Assembly: GCA_900617105.1 (NCBI GenBank)
Contig: UYFQ01000057.1
Location: 1 to 64,000, forward strand
From: Hydrurus foetidus
Lineage: Eukaryota
Reading direction: 5' to 3'
DNA length: 64,000 nucleotides
In this document: piece by piece, positions 12,769 through 61,361 of the stretch
Layout of the letters: each line of letters begins with the position of its first letter
How positions within the stretch are numbered: position 1 is the first letter of the stretch
Program-made: the position numbers and the translations under genes
Notes under the pieces: model-generated
What the model was told of the DNA's origin: nothing
Database searches by the model: none
What the model saw: the letters and a program-made list of their open reading frames with translations, nothing else

Positions 12769-13938
12769 TCACTTGGCGGCAGGTGCGCTGGCTGCCGGGG
12801 CGGCAGTTGCTATGGATTCAGGAGCTACTGGCGCAGCGGCGACGGGGGCTGGAGCACCTTTTCCATGGTAAATGGTGACTTTCTGACCAGGCGACAGCAC
12901 ATGCACGCCCGCCACCACCACCCGCATGCCAGGCTGCAGGCCATCTGCCACCACGACCGCATTGCCGTCGGCCGTGGCCACCATGATGGGCTGCAACTTC
13001 ACGGTCATGCTGGACGTGTCCAGCACCCACACCGCAGTCGATTTGCCACTTTGGACCAGCGCGCTGGTGGGCAGCTTGACGACCTGCACACCGCTGCGGT
13101 CAAACGCCTGCGGCACCACAGACACCGTGGTGCCCAGGGTGAGCGCATCTTTGCTGTCCAACGCCACCTTGACGGTGAACGTGCGCGTCACCGGGTCGGC
13201 ACTGGCCGCAACCTCGCGCACCAGCCCCTTCACCGTAGTTTTGCTGGCCCAGACCCGCACGTCCACAGCGGAGCCCACCTTGATCAGGGCCACCTTGTCT
13301 TCAGGCACCGCAAACACCACGTCCCGCGGGCCGTCCTGGGCAATTTGCACCACGGGCGTGCCGGCGGTCACCACCTGGCCAGGCTCGGCCGAAATGGCAG
13401 TCACCACACCCGACACATCGGCCACCAGCGTGGTGTACGACGCCTGGTTGCCCTGGCTATTGAGTTGGGCTTGCGCCTGGTCCAGCTGGGCCTGGGCGGC
13501 CTTCAGCGTGGTGTCGCGGCGCTCCAGTTCGGCGCCGCTGATGAAGTTTTGGTCGCGCAGTTCCTTGAAGCGCTTGAAGTCAGCGGCGGCCAGGTCGCGG
13601 TTGGTGGCGGCAGCGGCCACCTGGGCGCGGGCGGCTTCCGTGGCCAGTTTGTAGTCTTGGGGGTCCAGCTGGGCCAGCACCTGGCCGGCTTTCACCATTT
13701 GGCCCAGCTCCACGGGGCGGCGCACCAGCTTGCCGGCGACCCTAAAACCCAGGCGGGATTCCACGCGGGGCCGCACTTCGCCCGAAAACTCGGCACCGGA
13801 CTGGATGCTGTCCATGCCCACGGTAATCACTTTGACCGCACGGATCGGTTCTTCAGGGGGCGCGGGCTTGGAGCAAGCGGACAAGACCAGCGCCGCTGCA
13901 ATGAGCGAGGCCCCGGTGGCAAAAGATTTGAATTGCAT
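12769..13938 (-). CDS. RND periplasmic adaptor (MFP) lipoprotein
   Basis: LSAC lipobox, VKAGQVLAQLD, ADPVTRTF. Confidence 0.95.
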   Translation of the reverse strand: MQFKSFATGASLIAAALVLSACSKPAPPEEPIRAVKVITVGMDSIQSGAEFSGEVRPRVESRLGFRVAGKLVRRPVELGQMVKAGQVLAQLDPQDYKLATEAARAQVAAAATNRDLAAADFKRFKELRDQNFISGAELERRDTTLKAAQAQLDQAQAQLNSQGNQASYTTLVADVSGVVTAISAEPGQVVTAGTPVVQIAQDGPRDVVFAVPEDKVALIKVGSAVDVRVWASKTTVKGLVREVAASADPVTRTFTVKVALDSKDALTLGTTVSVVPQAFDRSGVQVVKLPTSALVQSGKSTAVWVLDTSSMTVKLQPIMVATADGNAVVVADGLQPGMRVVVAGVHVLSPGQKVTIYHGKGAPAPVAAAPVAPESIATAAPAASAPAAK

Positions 13939-14943: not shown

Positions 14944-14965
14944 GCACCACCGGCCTGCCCATAAA

Positions 14966-15011
14966 CGCTACGAAATCAATAGCTACTCCCGCATATCCCA
15001 CGCGGGCTAGA
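14966..15011 (+). repeat. 46-bp dispersed repeat
   Basis: CGCTACGAAATCAATAGCTACTCCCGCATATCCCACGCGGGCTAGA. Confidence 0.8.
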
Positions 15012-26451: not shown

Positions 26452-26745
26452 GGGGAGTTCTCGGTGTTTAAAGCGCTATTTTCTGCGTTTTTTCGAGCAC
26501 ATCACCGTTTAGGGCGAGATGACGTTGCCGGGCTGTGTGTGATTGGTTTAGAAAGTGTGGGCGGGCAGCTTTGCGGCGTTTTCTGTCGTCCACTAAGTAG
26601 GTCCAATTGCCAGCTTTCAGCGCTTTGGCACCTAGAATCTGACAATCGCAAGCTGCGGGGTTTGTCGGAATTTTTATACCTGTATAAAAAGGTCGAAAAT
26701 TCGAGGAAACCTAAGCTGCAAGCCACTTACAAGAGGTTTTCGTGT

Positions 26746-26806
26746 CCAGAATATCCCGCAGCACCCAGAATATCCTGCAGTTTTTGCGGTATACATTACG
26801 TTAAAG
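26746..26806 (+). other. attI-like recombination site
   Basis: GGTATAC-N5-GTTAAAG core (26788-26806) preceded by two 16-bp direct repeats CCAGAATATCCYGCAG; no attC hairpin upstream. Confidence 0.7.
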
Positions 26807-27765: not shown

Positions 27766-29554
27766 CTGTAAAAAAACTCTCAATTTGCCAATTTCCGTCA
27801 GCCCCCGCGTGGTCTAAAACGTTGTATTTATATCCCCAACGTACCCCGCAGAACATGGCCCGCTACAAACCCCAAGACCGTAACAGCATGCTGCTGCCAG
27901 TCGTGTTGTCCGAACAAATCGTCCCCGGCAGCTTTGCCTTTGCACTGGACTACCTGGTCGACAACGAGCTTGACCTCACGGCCATGGATGCCAAGTTCAA
28001 GAACGATGAGGTAGGAGCCAGTGCCTACGACCCCCGCGTCATGCTCAAGATCGTCTTGCTGGCCTACAGCCAGGGCCTGATCTCCAGCCGCACCATTGAA
28101 CAAGCTTGTGCGCGCAACGTCCAATTCATCGCCATCAGTGGCGACAGCCAACCCAGCCACACCCACATCGCCAAGTTCGTCTGCAGCCTCAGCGACCAGA
28201 TCAAACCCCTATTCAGCCAAGTCCTGATGACCTGCGATGCCCAAGGCTTGATCGGACGCGAGATGTTTGCCATCGACGGCGTCAAGCTCCCCAGCAATGC
28301 CAGCAAAGAGCGCAGCGGCACCCATGAAGAACTGCGCCACCGCGCTGACCGTTTGGACCAGGCTGCAGACAAGATACTGGCGCTGCACCAAGCCCAAGAC
28401 AAACAAGGTAGTGACCAGCCGCTGGAACCCAAGCGTCAAGCCCAAATGGACGCCCTGCGCAAAGAAGCCAAACGCACACGGGAATTCTTGGCCACCACTC
28501 CCAAGCGTATTGGCAGTAAAGGCAAAGAGCTCAAGTCCAACGTCACCGATCCACAGAGCGCCAAGATGGCCACCAGCAAAGGCGTCATGCAAGGCTACGC
28601 GGCACAGGCTGCTGTGGACAGTGCAAACCAAGTCATCATTGCAGCGGATGTGATTGGCTCCGGCTCCGAGCAAGCCATGCTGCTACCTATGATTGAGCAG
28701 GCAAGCCCCTTTCGCACACCAGATACCCTGGTCACCGCCGATGCGGGGTACCACAGCGATACCAACATTGCGCAACTGATGCAGCAAGGCATCCCCGCCA
28801 TGGTGGCTGACAACCAGATGCGCGCCCGTGATGAGCGCTTTGCGGAACAAGACAAATACAAAGGTAAGCCCGATCCACTGTCCGAGAAGAAAGCCACCGG
28901 GCAGGAGAAGGAGGTCAAACGGTTGGGCCCCAAGGACTTCACCTTCAATGATGACAACACGGCTACATGCCCGGCGGGCCAGGTGATGACCAGTGCAGGC
29001 ACCATCTACTTCACTGCAAATGGACAGCCTTATCAGCGCTACACGGCCAAAGCAAGAGACTGCGAATCGTGCCCCTGCAAAACGCAATGTCTCAAAGGCC
29101 CCATGAAGCCCAACGATGGACGCGGCAGAAGCGTCACCCGCTTTGAGCCCAAACCCAAAGACCCAACCAACCCCAGTGAGCGCATGCGCCAAGCGATTGA
29201 CTCACCCCGGGGACGCCAGCTTTACAGTCAACGCTTTGGCACAGTGGAGCCGGTGTTTGCCAACATCCGCCACAACAAGCGCCTGACTCGGTTGAACCAC
29301 CGAGGCCGCACCAAGGTCAATACGCAGTGGAACCTGTACTGCATGGTGCATAACATTGAGAAGCTATCGAAGACGAATCTGGGATGTCAGAGGGTTCGAT
29401 AAAGAGGCCATAAGGCCCTGCAGACGCTATCAGGCTCGAAACTGAGAAAAATTGCGGCACACTTTGCGCATGAGCGCCAAATTCTTAAAAACCGATCCAC
29501 GAATCACGCACAGCCGACATGGCGGGTTTGGAAATCGGGTTTTTTTACAGCCTC
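27762..29554 (+). mobile_element. IS1182-family insertion sequence, 1793 bp
   Basis: Perfect 16-bp terminal IR GAGGCTGTAAAAAAAC; GTT duplicated on both sides. Confidence 0.93.
27855..29402 (+). CDS. IS1182-family DDE transposase (515 aa)
   Basis: YDPRVMLK..SSR.IE N-domain, AIDGVK, ADAGY, Cys-rich insert, VEPVFANI. Confidence 0.94.
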   Translation: MARYKPQDRNSMLLPVVLSEQIVPGSFAFALDYLVDNELDLTAMDAKFKNDEVGASAYDPRVMLKIVLLAYSQGLISSRTIEQACARNVQFIAISGDSQPSHTHIAKFVCSLSDQIKPLFSQVLMTCDAQGLIGREMFAIDGVKLPSNASKERSGTHEELRHRADRLDQAADKILALHQAQDKQGSDQPLEPKRQAQMDALRKEAKRTREFLATTPKRIGSKGKELKSNVTDPQSAKMATSKGVMQGYAAQAAVDSANQVIIAADVIGSGSEQAMLLPMIEQASPFRTPDTLVTADAGYHSDTNIAQLMQQGIPAMVADNQMRARDERFAEQDKYKGKPDPLSEKKATGQEKEVKRLGPKDFTFNDDNTATCPAGQVMTSAGTIYFTANGQPYQRYTAKARDCESCPCKTQCLKGPMKPNDGRGRSVTRFEPKPKDPTNPSERMRQAIDSPRGRQLYSQRFGTVEPVFANIRHNKRLTRLNHRGRTKVNTQWNLYCMVHNIEKLSKTNLGCQRVR

Positions 29555-29992: not shown

Positions 29993-30079
29993 GCCTAACG
30001 GGTCGGCCAACACAGACCCACAACAGCAGATGGCGGCTCCGCCGCATCTGTTGTGGTCTGGTTGCCTCAAACGTTGAAC
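29993..30079 (+). repeat. attC site 3
   Basis: GCCTAAC...GTTGAAC, 87 bp. Confidence 0.92.
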
Positions 30080-30704
30080 TAAACCGCTGACGCGGTGGTT
30101 GATACAAGCAGAGCGACACCATGTTGTTTGACTGAAAGTGCGAATTGACAAACTCAGGGCAACAGCGCATCTTTTGCCTTTTGGTGAACATTTCCCGGCC
30201 AGCAGACTTCGAGCGCTAGTCTCCTGCCGCTTATGACCGTCAGGCGGGCCACTGCGTGAGCCCCATCACTATTGGCGGTCCAAATGTTCGCCGGTAACAG
30301 CGCTTCTTTTGAGGACCGCCTTACGCAATAGGTATTGATCTCCATAGTGAGTTCAATTCGGTTGGGGTGCCGGGGGTGAAGCCTTTGCCTTTGAGTTGCG
30401 TAGGACGTGCTTTTTTCTATCGCAATCACTGTTGCGACTCTTAGCAATAGGGAATTGACGGTTTGTCGACCCTGGGAGCAGACTGAACAGGTCTAGTTCG
30501 CTTCGTCAGGGTCAAATCGCGACTTTTCACGATGTGAGTCGATCCTTACAATCCCCTTTATATTTGCGGGTGGTGGAACGCACCGATCCACTTCAACGCT
30601 GCACGCGGGCACCTCGCGGCGGTTCAGTCCAACATGGTTTATCAGCCGCGGGAGGCGTTTATGGTTTCTACGAGCATTGCAGCGCGGCTGATAAACGCTA
30701 ATCG
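30074..30704 (+). repeat. 631-bp apparently gene-less cassette, copy 1 (attC at 30627-30710)
   Basis: Near-identical to 30705-31335 and 32720-33350; ends in an 84-bp attC, GTCCAAC...TTTATCAGCCGCG/CGCGGCTGATAAA...GTT. Confidence 0.92.
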
Positions 30705-31335
30705 TTGAACTAAACCGCTGACGCGGTGGTTGATACAAGCAGAGCGACGCCATGTTGTTTGACTGAAAGTGCGAATTGACAAACTCAGGGCAACAGCGCA
30801 TCTTTTGCCTTTTGGTGAACATTTCCCGGCCAGCAGACTTCGAGCGCTAGTCTCCTGCCGCTTATGACCGTCAGGCGGGCCACTGCGTGAGCCCCATCAC
30901 TATTGGCGGTCCAAATGTTCGCCGGTAACAGCGCTTCTTTTGAGGACCGCCTTACGCAATAGGTATTGATCTCCATAGTGAGTTCAATTCGGTTGGGGTG
31001 CCGGGGGTGAAGCCTTTGCCTTTGAGTTGCGTAGGACGTGCTTTTTTCTATCGCAATCACTGTTGCGACTCTTAGCAATAGGGAATTGACGGTTTGTCGA
31101 CCCTGGGAGCAGACTGAACAGGTCTAGTTCGCTTCGTCAGGGCCAAATCGCGACTTTTCACGATGTGAGTCGATCCTTACAATCCCCTTTATATTTGCGG
31201 GTGGTGGAACGCACCGATCCACTTCAACGCTGCACGCGGGCACCTCGCGGCGGTTCAGTCCAACATGGTTTATCAGCCGCGGGAGGCGTTTATGGTTTCT
31301 ACGAGCATTGCAGCGCGGCTGATAAACGCTAATCG
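30705..31335 (+). repeat. 631-bp apparently gene-less cassette, copy 2 (attC at 31258-31341)
   Basis: Tandem to copy 1; two single-base differences seen. Confidence 0.92.
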
Positions 31336-31347
31336 TTAAATCGCACG

Positions 31348-31656
31348 ATGACGACCGCCGCATTTCCTAAGCTGCACTTCCGCGAGCCGTTTGTGGATAT
31401 TGTCGCATTCGAGGTTCCTCACAAGGGCTGGTACGACGGTGTCACGGTCGAACTGGAGGATGGGCGGATGGTTCCTCTGTTCTTCTATGACCCAACCCGC
31501 TTGGCCCAGGATCTCGCGTCAGATGCAGCTCAGGGCGAACCCTTTGTTGCCGAACACTTCATGGTCGTGGTGCCAGAAGTGACGGAGGCGGCCATGCGTA
31601 CTGCCATCTCACTCCTTCACAGCAAGGGCTGGTTCAATGCACGCGGTGCGACTTAA
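31348..31656 (+). CDS. Cassette 6 hypothetical protein
   Basis: ORF fills the cassette; stop lies in R''. Confidence 0.8.
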   Translation: MTTAAFPKLHFREPFVDIVAFEVPHKGWYDGVTVELEDGRMVPLFFYDPTRLAQDLASDAAQGEPFVAEHFMVVVPEVTEAAMRTAISLLHSKGWFNARGAT

Positions 31657-31737
31657 CATGCCAATGGACACGGACCCACAACAGCAGGAGGCGGCTTCGC
31701 CGCACGTGTTGGTGGTCCGGTCATCTTCACGTTAATT
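31651..31737 (+). repeat. attC site 6
   Basis: ACTTAAC...GTTAATT, 87 bp, near-identical to attC1. Confidence 0.93.
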
Positions 31738-31743
31738 CTCAAG

Positions 31744-32064
31744 ATGTACAGCTACGAAGACATCAAGGAACGCTCGGCATCAGGTACATCACTGATTCTG
31801 AGCTATACGGATGCGATGGAGATTCTGTACCTCTATGGAGAAAAATCTGTGGTCGTTTCTGGATGGGACGGATGGATCGTTCAGTCAAACGGTGGCTTAA
31901 GGATGTCTCAACGTCATCAGGGGCCAGCAGATATTTCATCAATGCCACAAAAAGCGGCAATTGCCTTGGCAAAGGGAACGATCATGCAGGCACACGTGGA
32001 GTGGGAAGTAAATCCAGAGGATAAAAATGCGCAGTTATTCTTTCATGTCCGTCTACCGAATTAA
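31744..32064 (+). CDS. Cassette 7 hypothetical protein
   Basis: ORF fills the cassette; stop lies in R''. Confidence 0.8.
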   Translation: MYSYEDIKERSASGTSLILSYTDAMEILYLYGEKSVVVSGWDGWIVQSNGGLRMSQRHQGPADISSMPQKAAIALAKGTIMQAHVEWEVNPEDKNAQLFFHVRLPN

Positions 32065-32145
32065 CAGGTTGCTCGACACGGACACGCAACCAAAGACTGC
32101 CCCTTCGCGGCAAGGGTTGCGCGCCTGGCAGCGCCAACGTTGGAC
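32059..32145 (+). repeat. attC site 7
   Basis: AATTAAC...GTTGGAC, 87 bp. Confidence 0.9.
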
Positions 32146-32148
32146 GAC

Positions 32149-32637
32149 ATGAAGTTCCGAGTCCAGACAACTACTGGCGGCGAAGTAGTCTTTGCTGGCG
32201 ATTCAAGGAAAGGGCGGCTTGTCTACTATGGCGTTCCCCCTGAAACAGGCCTTTGGAAAATAGACAACCCAAAATTCGAAGACTTCCTATCAGGTGAGCT
32301 TGGTCTTCGGTCCTTTGGCAGTTCCATTGAAGAGTTCGTTTTTGGACTTGAAATTGCAGAACTGGAAGAGTGGGGTCGATGGTTTAAGGAGACACGAAAC
32401 TATATGAGCTATCGCCCAAAAAGTAAGCAGATCATTTCAGTCGGGCAGATTGAGTGGAAAGACGTGAAGGAGCTTGCAGCGGACGTGCAATTTGAGCAAT
32501 TGAAATTCGCGCTGACTGTGGCAATTGAACGTATTGGCACTCTGAAGCGTAAGCCGAGTGACTTCGACTACGCAAGTTTCGGAGCCGCTGTCCAAGAGTC
32601 GTTGTCGCGCTGTACTTCGGCGATGGTGGCGGCATGA
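32149..32637 (+). CDS. Cassette 8 hypothetical protein (possibly immunity-protein-like)
   Basis: ORF fills the cassette. Confidence 0.8.
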   Translation: MKFRVQTTTGGEVVFAGDSRKGRLVYYGVPPETGLWKIDNPKFEDFLSGELGLRSFGSSIEEFVFGLEIAELEEWGRWFKETRNYMSYRPKSKQIISVGQIEWKDVKELAADVQFEQLKFALTVAIERIGTLKRKPSDFDYASFGAAVQESLSRCTSAMVAA

Positions 32638-32638
32638 C

Positions 32639-32725
32639 GTCCAACAGGTTGTTCGTCTCGGACATGCAGCGGCAGAAGGCCGCTGCGCGGCATGTGCTGC
32701 CCGCCGGACAACGCCAACGTTGAAC
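32639..32725 (+). repeat. attC site 8
   Basis: GTCCAAC...GTTGAAC, 87 bp. Confidence 0.9.
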
Positions 32726-33350
32726 TAAACCGCTGACGCGGTGGTTGATACAAGCAGAGCGACGCCATGTTGTTTGACTGAAAGTGCGAATTGACAAACT
32801 CAGGGCAACAGCGCATCTTTTGCCTTTTGGTGAACATTTCCCGGCCAGCAGACTTCGAGCGCTAGTCTCCTGCCGCTTATGACCGTCAGGCGGGCCACTG
32901 CGTGAGCCCCATCACTATTGGCGGTCCAAATGTTCGCCGGTAACAGCGCTTCTTTTGAGGACCGCCTTACGCAATAGGTATTGATCTCCATAGTGAGTTC
33001 AATTCGGTTGGGGTGCCGGGGGTGAAGCCTTTGCCTTTGAGTTGCGTAGGACGTGCTTTTTTCTATCGCAATCACTGTTGCGACTCTTAGCAATAGGGAA
33101 TTGACGGTTTGTCGACCCTGGGAGCAGACTGAACAGGTCTAGTTCGCTTCGTCAGGGTCAAATCGCGACTTTTCACGATGTGAGTCGATCCTTACAATCC
33201 CCTTTATATTTGCGGGTGGTGGAACGCACCGATCCACTTCAACGCTGCACGCGGGCACCTCGCGGCGGTTCAGTCCAACATGGTTTATCAGCCGCGGGAG
33301 GCGTTTATGGTTTCTACGAGCATTGCAGCGCGGCTGATAAACGCTAATCG
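32720..33350 (+). repeat. 631-bp apparently gene-less cassette, copy 3 (attC at 33273-33356)
   Basis: Dispersed third copy with exact cassette boundaries. Confidence 0.92.
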
Positions 33351-33375
33351 TTAAGCATCCGCTCAACAGCACAAC

Positions 33376-33840
33376 ATGAACCTCGTCCTCGAATCCTCCG
33401 AGCGTGTGCCGTTCTACACAGACATGTGCTCTACGCTCACGGCTATGGGCGTCGAAGCTACTGCGTATGACTGGTTTGTAAGTGACGTCGAGACAAATAT
33501 TGCTGTACCTGCATTAGCCGATGGTGATGTCTGGGTGACCGGCGACGAGCTCTCTCGGATGCTCTCGCACGATATTCAGTTCATCTGGGGTGTGTTCAGC
33601 GCCGTTCCGAAGGGAAAGAGATTTGAAGTTCTTGTTCCACCGGGTGCCGACGGGAATCCGAGTTTTTGGCAACCACCGGCGGCGCGACCACAATTGGAAG
33701 GGGCGTGCTTCGAGATCGTATGTTGGGACAGTTCGGCTACCGTCCTCGTGGGCGTATCGTCTTTTCAAGCTGAACGGTTTTTTGCAACGTATCCAGATGC
33801 GCTGCCTCTTTCGTCCACGTGGCCCAAGGCAAATGCTTAA
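33376..33840 (+). CDS. Cassette 10 hypothetical protein (possibly DUF2691-like)
   Basis: YDWFVSDVE, QFIWGVFSA and EIVCWDSS motifs; stop lies in R''. Confidence 0.8.
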   Translation: MNLVLESSERVPFYTDMCSTLTAMGVEATAYDWFVSDVETNIAVPALADGDVWVTGDELSRMLSHDIQFIWGVFSAVPKGKRFEVLVPPGADGNPSFWQPPAARPQLEGACFEIVCWDSSATVLVGVSSFQAERFFATYPDALPLSSTWPKANA

Positions 33841-33921
33841 CATGCCAATCGACTCGGACCCACAACAGCAGGAAGCGGCTTCGCCGCAGGTTGTTGTGGT
33901 CCGGTCATCTCCACGTTAAAC
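33835..33921 (+). repeat. attC site 10
   Basis: GCTTAAC...GTTAAAC, 87 bp, near-identical to attC1 and attC6. Confidence 0.93.
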
Positions 33922-34049
33922 CGCAAGTGCAGATCAACCATATTCAAACCGAGAGTGCACCGCTTGCTGCGTTTGGTGTCGACGCCGAAAGCTTGCTTAT
34001 CGCCGACAACGTGAATGTCCTCGTCAACCGTTTCGGTTAGCCTCCAACG
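33916..34049 (+). pseudogene. Internally deleted cassette remnant (ORF start fused to the right end of an attC)
   Basis: 134 bp between two GTTAAAC core sites; no R'' or left arm. Confidence 0.6.
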
Positions 34050-34072
34050 TTAAACCGTAGAAGAAATATCGA

Positions 34073-34107
34073 TTGATGCCAATACGTTTTGTATATACAC
34101 TTTGTAT
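34073..34107 (+). promoter_or_regulatory. sigma70 promoter and probable autorepression operator of the TA cassette
   Basis: TTGATG-N17-TACACT overlapped by two ATAC-N5-GTAT palindromes. Confidence 0.65.
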
Positions 34108-34382
34108 ATGGAGTTCACTTGGTCTGAAACGAAGCGTGCAGCGAACATCAAAGCCCATGGGCTTGACTTCCTGGATGCCGCGAGCGTTTTGAAGGCGTGA
34201 CATTTACTTTCGAGGATGACCGTTTCTCCTACTGCGAGCAACGCTTCGTTACGCTGGGCTTGCTCGCTGGCATCACAGTTTCAGTCGTACATACGGAGAG
34301 TGAACATGAAATCCGCGTCATCTCGTTCCGAAGAGCTACCAAGCGCGAGTCGCAAATCTACTTCGATGAAATCCAAAACTGA
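34108..34382 (+). pseudogene. brnT: BrnT-family toxin, frameshifted
   Basis: MEFTWSETKRAANIKAHGLDFLDAASV in one frame; FEDDR..Y.EQRFVTLG..RVISFRRATKRE in another. The shift is at the T run near 34187-34190. Confidence 0.85.
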
Positions 34383-34620
34383 TTGGGTACGCCTGAAGTC
34401 CGGCGTGGGTGAACAAAAGCCGACGTCCGAACACCCAGAGGCGAACGTAAAGCACATTGTTCGCGGCTTGGTTCGCAAAGGTTTGAAGCCGCTACCTGCC
34501 AAAGCGTCCATTTCGCTGCGCGTAGATCAAGATGTGCTTGAATGGTTCAAGGCGCAAGGGACTGGCTATCAGACACGCATCAACACTGTCCTGAGGGCCT
34601 TCCGTGACGCTTCGGTTTAA
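34366..34620 (+). CDS. brnA: BrnA-family antitoxin
   Basis: KTDWVRL and ISLRVDQDVLEWFKAQGTGYQTRINTVLR. Confidence 0.93.
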   Translation: MKSKTDWVRLKSGVGEQKPTSEHPEANVKHIVRGLVRKGLKPLPAKASISLRVDQDVLEWFKAQGTGYQTRINTVLRAFRDASV

Positions 34621-34701
34621 CAGGTTGCTCGTCGCGGACACGCAGCTGCAGTATTTCGCTTCGCGGCCGATGCTGCGCACCGTACAGCTCCGACGTTGAG
34701 G
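34615..34701 (+). repeat. Last attC site (R' runs into an IS-like end)
   Basis: GTTTAAC...GTT|GAGG, 87 bp. Confidence 0.88.
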
Positions 34702-34716
34702 TTGTAAAAAAAACTC
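34698..34716 (+). mobile_element. Relic terminal IR of a related IS1182-like element
   Basis: GAGGTTGTAAAAAAAACTC versus GAGGCTGTAAAAAAACTC at 27762; no transposase or partner IR seen. Confidence 0.7.
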
Positions 34717-41247: not shown

Positions 41248-41254
41248 CCTAGAC

Positions 41255-41300
41255 TGCTATTGTTTTTGTAGCTTCTTGCGCAATATCCACGGGGGCTAGC
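41255..41300 (+). repeat. 46-bp dispersed repeat
   Basis: TGCTATTGTTTTTGTAGCTTCTTGCGCAATATCCACGGGGGCTAGC, between convergent genes. Confidence 0.8.
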
Positions 41301-41312
41301 GCCCTATTTCTC

Positions 41313-49934: not shown

Positions 49935-49969
49935 GCGGCTATGTTAACCGTGGCCTGCGTCGTCAGTTC

Positions 49970-50015
49970 CACTATGAAAAAAGGAGCTGCTCCCGCATAT
50001 TCCACGCGGGCTACA
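49970..50015 (+). repeat. 46-bp dispersed repeat
   Basis: CACTATGAAAAAAGGAGCTGCTCCCGCATATTCCACGCGGGCTACA. Confidence 0.75.
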
Positions 50016-50041
50016 GCTCCTTTTAATACCTAAACGGGTGC

Positions 50042-61289: not shown

Positions 61290-61301
61290 GGCTGCGCAAA
61301 A

Positions 61302-61347
61302 CGCTACACTTTTAGTAGCTGCCCGCGCATACTCCACGCGGGCTAGC
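61302..61347 (+). repeat. 46-bp dispersed repeat
   Basis: CGCTACACTTTTAGTAGCTGCCCGCGCATACTCCACGCGGGCTAGC, between convergent tolA and dnaE. Confidence 0.8.
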
Positions 61348-61361
61348 GGCCTATTTCACCC

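Follow-up and report, generated by a model that had tools for sequence, protein, structure and literature searches.

We analysed a stretch of 64,000 nucleotides deposited under Hydrurus foetidus (GenBank assembly GCA_900617105.1, contig UYFQ01000057.1, positions 1 to 64,000, forward strand), referred to below as the window, which holds three copies of a 631-bp unit without genes in an array of integron recombination sites (attI and attC). The comparisons indicate that the unit is a gene-less, non-autonomous derivative of an element that inserts at attI/attC sites and has genes for an integron-like tyrosine recombinase and an IS91 transposase, because both ends of the unit are common to the two. 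They also indicate that the unit is non-coding and that it contains a predicted folded domain in which base pairing is conserved, with compensatory change, beyond what phylogeny accounts for, in a set of 6–8 sequences. To our knowledge, neither an origin nor a role is known for most gene-less integron cassettes. As its parent can be traced and its compact fold is under selection, this one is a small testable unit; it bears on the roles that such cassettes have other than as a source of promoters, and on the way in which IS91 elements with a recombinase exploit the sites of integrons.

The copies and the head of the array are located as follows.

30074..30704, plus strand: gene-less unit, copy 1, placed at the G|TT of the attC at 29993–30079.
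30705..31335, plus strand: gene-less unit, copy 2, in tandem, placed at the G|TT of the hairpin of copy 1.
32720..33350, plus strand: gene-less unit, copy 3, 3' of the attC at 32640–32725.
26650..26806, plus strand: attI-like array head, 71% identical to the attI adjoining an intact intI in genome G007 (here and below, labels of this kind are our own).

A first-pass annotation, made from the letters of the window, had described three copies with two differences, no plus-strand open reading frame (ORF) of 60 aa or more, and a share of one quarter of the array units. All of this was reproduced: the copies are 631 bp each and differ only at 30118 and 31143, their longest plus-strand ORF has 55 aa, and by our own count they make up 3 of the 12 units of the attC array, which starts at the attI-like site (crossover 26800/26801). 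The support in raw reads that had been asked for three copies was obtained in part. In two sequencing runs containing the stretch, read depth in the unit interior was 81.6 and 106.1 versus approximately 36–37 at unique neighbours; the ratios of 2.2× and 2.9× fit 2–3 copies, depth itself not being a copy number, but no contig among the matches listed in the runs spans the junction of copies 1 and 2. A neighbouring protein of the window clusters with a protein of Rhodoferax saidenbachensis. Each unit is bounded by G|TT core sites inside the attI/attC array, as a canonical cassette is, and insertion is site-specific at G|TT with no target duplication seen.

The origin of the unit was deduced from its two ends, of which approximately 125 nt on the left and 170–220 nt on the right, attC-like hairpin included, are common to unit and parent.

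30073..30198, plus strand: left end homologous to the parent element, with the first 29 nt near-invariant and similarity extending to approximately nt 126.
30627..30710, plus strand: attC-like hairpin of the element, with an unbroken central stem, a 7-versus-3 internal loop and up to 98% identity to parent ends.
30619..30633, minus strand: sub-terminal inverted repeat, matching the left end at 13 of 15 positions and lengthening the hairpin at a tandem or circle junction.

The first 28 nt of the unit match a class 1 integron on an Escherichia coli plasmid, where they open a unit with a tyrosine recombinase and an IS91 transposase; since the parent thus also resides in such an integron, mobile integrons take part in this traffic. 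A search of the E. coli genome collection did not find the parent. It is approximately 2.5 kb long, widespread, and found at attI/attC sites. The exact 23-nt pattern of the left end matched at 121 loci (an estimated 390 or so stretches) in taxa that include Burkholderiales, Rhodocyclales and Rokubacteria, and long flanks were retrieved for 80 of these loci. The downstream end motif follows in 24 loci, 19 of them complete elements longer than 2.3 kb, and both the recombinase and the transposase ORFs are present in each of 18 elements. Judged by eye among the matches listed, many upstream flanks consist of an attI or attC site that is interrupted at G|TT. The parent transposase scores as an IS91 transposase (389.5 bits, cut-off 125), while the best match of the recombinase, an integron-like integrase, stays below its cut-off (168.7 vs 265). 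A profile built from the parents matches nt 1–57 and 431–632 of the unit; with the profile of the short family, in turn, the match to the parents runs to nt 126 and resumes at nt 416. The Y2 HUH transposase gene present in the parent was not found in the unit.

These observations refine two earlier proposals. The complementary ends of the unit are real but belong to the sub-terminal inverted repeat of the parent, not to an RNA. The description of a selfish gene-less cassette also stands, but the cassette is not an ordinary one: its ends come from the recombinase and IS91 element, no intI was found within the 64-kb window, and in the predicted folds its attC-like hairpin is devoid of the bulged bases present in several neighbouring attC sites. 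Among the parents themselves, head-to-tail tandem copies were seen at locus L014 and in contigs C18 and C19 of genome G132, and L034:3001-3069 is a 69-bp perfect-ended palindrome of two inverted parent left ends.

The proposed search for homologues yielded relatives of the unit at 50–72% identity in Comamonadaceae. Four are full-length (625–645 bp; G007, 72%; G500, 69%; G013, 64–66%; G010, 50%) and four are shortened: G003 (358 bp), G1050 (right end lost), G015 (internal piece) and G742 (the contig stops inside the folded domain). Only the 3' module is left in G554 and G107; in the latter (L129:764-934), this promoter-like module and the hairpin lie 5' of a gene, apparently outside an array, and are preceded by what looks by eye like the end of a transporter gene. 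Weak short matches in G281, G420 and G111 were dropped, their loci not being matched by the RNA model. There are also deletion forms of independent origin, with lengths of 300, 435, 1050 and 1100 bp. Among five genomes with a short form tested for the parent, four carry one whose ends are the same and whose frames are open; the fifth has a broken parent. The short family is rare (5/144 genomes in the richest genus, 1/96, and 2/401 in the family draw). No new member was found in samples of the order (151) and the family (348, mostly the same draw as the 401), nor in the genera of G545 (131 genomes), G544 (151) and G546 (16), and no homologue of the interior was found in plasmid, phage, viral and metagenome collections, the metagenomes having been scanned by exact pattern only.

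Using these relatives, we considered whether the unit could be an ordinary cassette moved by IntI and carrying a small gene on the minus strand, where ORFs inside the window unit reach 97 aa and where G500 has an open frame of 200 codons (chance 0.028). Codon-type substitutions, which the first-pass annotation had named as the sign of such a gene, were looked for, and no codon pattern was seen in any frame. The three codon positions have similar shares of the substitutions and none of the frames is free of stops, for which reasons the unit is regarded as non-coding; in addition, indels disrupt the frame, and a Pfam search gave no match. The minus-strand gene was rejected, and the ordinary-cassette explanation as a whole is very improbable.

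The predicted fold consists of the following parts.

30182..30304, plus strand: conserved folded domain of copy 1, a predicted three-way junction with a pseudoknot, approximately 125 nt.
30182–30193 with 30282–30293, plus strand: helix P1 of the domain.
30197–30208 with 30218–30228, plus strand: helix P2 of the domain.
30235–30243 with 30272–30280, plus strand: helix P3 of the domain.
30246–30251 with 30257–30263, plus strand: helix P3b of the domain.
30212–30217 with 30299–30304, plus strand: pseudoknot between the P2 loop and the strand 3' of P1.
30813..30935, plus strand: folded domain of copy 2, from the RNA model.
32828..32950, plus strand: folded domain of copy 3, from the RNA model.
30334..30372, plus strand: P4 and P5, two short helices paired in 44 of 45 cells, with zero double-sided changes.

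Column-shuffle tests revealed conserved structure at columns 121–280 on the plus strand (z −3.8, structure conservation index (SCI) 0.79). The same test of the opposite strand gave z −1.4 and SCI 0.68, which places the signal on the plus strand, and the 3' half of the unit showed no conserved structure (SCI 0.12–0.25). P1, P2 and P3 were predicted by RNAalifold from four sequences, G003 not among them. In five sequences 92.7% of cells are paired and 13 of 44 pairs have changed on both sides; none of 500 shuffles matched this, and slid controls gave at most 2. A naive helix scan produced many chance helices with up to 3 compensations, and its single helices were not used.

Shuffle tests ignore kinship; held-out tests and a neutral simulation on a tree were run in addition. 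The tree comprised six sequences, with G010, G015 and G742 excluded as decayed or partial. In this set 93.2% of cells are paired and 14 pairs show double-sided changes, whereas the neutral simulation yielded 73–78% pairing and 4–6 such changes; a pairing of 93.2% was never attained (0 of 3000 runs at each of 6 settings), and 14 double-sided changes were attained in 0–4 of 3000 runs. With eight rows, decayed and partial ones included, the values are 87.2% and 15. The held-out G003 retains 26–28 of 29–30 pairs predicted beforehand versus 19–22 expected (P 1e-4 to 0.02), G010 retains 22 versus 16 expected (P about 0.01), and G1050, found later with the finished model, retains 42 of 44.

These results replace the earlier description of a hairpin-dense RNA of approximately 550 nt. 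Structure is supported, and the covariation that was to be looked for lies in the domain at 30182–30304, but this domain is of approximately 125 nt, possibly up to approximately 210 nt, and is built from other stems; P4 and P5 may form a 3' part of the RNA. The stems named in the annotation are present in the window copy, but the whole unit folds only modestly better than shuffled sequences (z −1.95 on the plus strand, −2.36 on the minus strand). Conservation was seen for only one of the seven, the small hairpin CGACT/TCAC (2 of 3 relatives), and the rest keep 0–6 pairs; the stem at 30274–30320, with 6 of 8 pairs kept in each of three relatives, competes with the conserved P3. The Rfam check was also made: the covariance models of Rfam 15 gave no match for the unit or the loci of four relatives. 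The only Rfam matches were weak miRNA ones on attC hairpins and, outside the element, the 3' end of one group II intron; the latter, in the L136:2443-2512 region, comes after the cassette that lies downstream of the G500 member. The cassette-borne small RNA sRNA-Xcc1, mentioned again below, is an Rfam family.

The same tests bear on a neutral explanation, in which the unit would be a relic of deletion, and the fold an inverted repeat in decay that template switching has patched. The many independent deletion forms, the weak folding of the whole unit, the 3' interior conserved at only 58%, and the decayed or truncated state of G010, G015 and G1050 would agree with it. Decay, however, is rejected by the neutral simulations and held-out tests, and template switching would neither prefer G-U over A-C (32 versus 10 cells on the plus strand) nor fix the spacing of a promoter. 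The relic explanation is thus already largely refuted, and we give it a slim chance.

Two promoter-like sites and one hairpin are relevant to transcription of the domain.

30145..30173, plus strand: promoter-like site A, TTGACA, 17 nt, CATCTT; the −10 box matches at only 3 of 6 positions and was missed by the automatic promoter scan.
30524..30552, plus strand: promoter-like site B, TTTTCA-17-TACAAT, facing the downstream cassettes.
30371..30395, plus strand: weak terminator-like hairpin, not flagged in the relative G007.

Site A (TTGACA-17-CATNNT) is situated 9 nt upstream of P1 in 8 of 8 members, in all of which the spacer sequence varies while its length and the hexamers hold; a similar site occurs in 2 of 20 parents. 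Together, the excess of G-U pairs and the position of site A just upstream of P1 point to a transcript, and we infer that its 5' end is closed by P1. Judging from the sequences, it is likely that the domain works as RNA rather than as single-stranded DNA (ssDNA). Sites of the attC type and rolling-circle intermediates do work as folded ssDNA, and comparative methods cannot tell ssDNA from RNA (PMC5737381; this and the other papers are cited for the part of their text that was available), so the fold might serve instead as a priming or recognition signal on an excised circle. Such a role is improbable: the fold, with its many G-U pairs and its pseudoknot, starts 9 nt below a promoter that departs less from consensus than those of the parents, and the parents move without it. 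An RBS-like (ribosome-binding-site-like) GAGGA was noticed by eye at 30311–30315.

Site B suggests a further role, that of a promoter cassette, in which downstream cassettes would be transcribed from sites A and B in arrays that no longer have intI and Pc, and the fold would act in cis as a leader or attenuator. Site B is present in 6 of 7 short elements and in 0 of 20 parents, in G554 and G107 it is retained by itself, no intI was found in the window, and gene-less promoter cassettes have been shown experimentally (10.1101/2023.11.21.568050, PMC6557892). The −10 box of site B, on the other hand, overlaps a motif kept in the parents too, G010 has lost the site, no conserved terminator was found among relatives, and the alternative stem covering the RBS is not conserved. 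We regard this as rather unlikely to be what the unit is for, although it is compatible with a small RNA made from site A, and both may hold.

Taken as a whole, the unit is probably a gene-less derivative mobilised in trans by its parent, with the folded domain acting as a small RNA transcribed from a retained promoter. The trans-mobilisation account is the most parsimonious one and follows from the established chemistry of integrons and IS91 elements. The enzymes of the parent would excise the unit as a single-stranded circle, the joined ends of which would fold into an extended attC-like hairpin, and would reinsert the circle at attI or attC. By analogy with these systems we consider this route likely, and it would account both for the near identity of the three copies and for the tandem arrangement of two. 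Host IntI is another possible mover. Contigs with related element ends occur in the same sequencing run as the window. In run X2, a 4093-nt contig with both element ends (depth 961) and an 8127-nt contig with a related left end (depth 37, the single-copy level of the window) could hold a helper.

The domain is absent from all parents examined and from several short forms, and is therefore dispensable for insertion. As it is not needed for insertion, has no antisense match to the parent, is compact and is largely paired, the RNA would be expected to bind a protein rather than an mRNA. The best single candidate, which we put forward only tentatively, is the recombinase or transposase of the parent, with the RNA as a decoy or regulator; this choice is suggested by the start of the RNA where the leader of the parent mRNA starts and by the resemblance of the outer helix to the parent leader hairpin. 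Host-directed cargo, regulatory or anti-phage, for which the element is a mere vehicle, is ranked close behind the parent enzymes and is likewise unlikely taken singly. Dispensability and absence from parents are how cargo behaves, members often occupy the first position at attI (next to an intact intI in G007, and next to matches to the intI N-terminus in G003 and G742), and the trans-acting sRNA-Xcc1 from an ORF-less cassette provides a precedent (PMC6557892). Against cargo, the proteins of cassettes neighbouring the copies gave 0 of 8 PADLOC matches, and the family is rare.

Several observations weigh against the proposed derivation, fold and function. No remnant of the recombinase or transposase was detected in the unit interior at the protein or DNA level, no parent element was seen within the 64-kb window, and the domain is absent from the parents examined. 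The likeness of the outer helix to the parent leader hairpin was judged by eye only, and sense, antisense or guide matches of the RNA to the parent are at chance level. No transcript of the unit interior was seen in RNA sequencing runs X15, X17 and X19, which contain the shared ends only and in which the host is not evident. Regarding the fold, just 6–8 sequences are available and many double-sided changes come from two branches (the window and G003); such changes are not above chance for G010 alone, nor for G003 versus G500 (P = 0.45). P3b and the pseudoknot were added after G003 had been seen, the pseudoknot has 2 double-sided changes and a rival partner for its 3' strand, and the minus strand of G003 folds as well as the plus strand (z −3.45 vs −2.82).

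The parent belongs beside IS91 elements with an integron-like tyrosine recombinase, such as ISShvi3, with which the unit shares the kind of ends and attI/attC insertion. ISShvi3 adjoining an attC has been described as a new cassette structure (PMC9229058), and the recombinases of IS91 elements have been grouped with IntI but without the IntI helical insertion (10.1101/542381). Unlike these elements, the unit is without both genes and has a folded domain absent from the parents examined; the comparison is one of kind, and the parent might itself be ISShvi3 or ISKpn22, the latter being met only as an integron label. The IS91 family has oriIS and terIS ends and a CTTG or GTTC target (PMC5737581), beside which the G|TT junctions of the unit may be set. 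As in MITE-like (miniature inverted-repeat transposable element-like) non-autonomous derivatives of insertion sequences, the unit is short, non-coding and multi-copy, and its ends are common with an autonomous partner; it differs in having no target duplication, in being site-specific at G|TT, and in an interior that is conserved family-specific sequence and not a parent remnant. Gene-less integron cassettes, including promoter cassettes and that of sRNA-Xcc1, are likewise ORF-less, lie in arrays, and have promoter motifs and possibly an RNA, as far as the cited texts go, whereas the unit has IS91-type derived ends, an atypical hairpin and no Rfam match. Finally, non-autonomous IS110 elements that carry a bridge RNA are also miniature elements keeping an RNA and borrowing an enzyme, but the enzyme class is other, the guide-like match of our RNA to the parent is not beyond chance, and the parent is without the RNA.

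No description of this family, or of RNA in IS91 derivatives, was found in the literature search, which did not cover ISfinder and subscription journals, where the parent may be named. The further-reaching possibility is that the unit represents an IS91-element satellite with a new class of pseudoknotted RNA controlling or exploiting helper enzymes, or a host-protecting cassette made of RNA only. We hold this to be unlikely on present evidence; if true, an RNA would work with a HUH rolling-circle transposon system, a combination that the literature search did not turn up, and spread via integron arrays.

Some other features of the window deserve mention. A transposase of the IS1182 family (27770–29530) opens a cassette directly after an attC, and a short look-alike of its left end (repeat family D4) is found at approximately 34697–34712, 3' of the last attC. 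The cassette at 33351–33915 has a second version, approximately 90% identical, on a 16-kb contig in both source-like runs. It is followed at 33916–34029 by a gene-less array unit of approximately 114 bp that has a G|TT site on either side and seems to be a truncated cassette, and then by a BrnT/BrnA toxin-antitoxin cassette (34030–34696), in which the brnT ORF is only 61 aa long, covers the C-terminal part of the profile and looks frameshifted. Intergenic REP-like (repetitive extragenic palindromic-like) repeats of approximately 50 nt (D5, D7) are dispersed at 12805–12863, 14963–15010, 41252–41310, 49967–50025 and 61299–61357.

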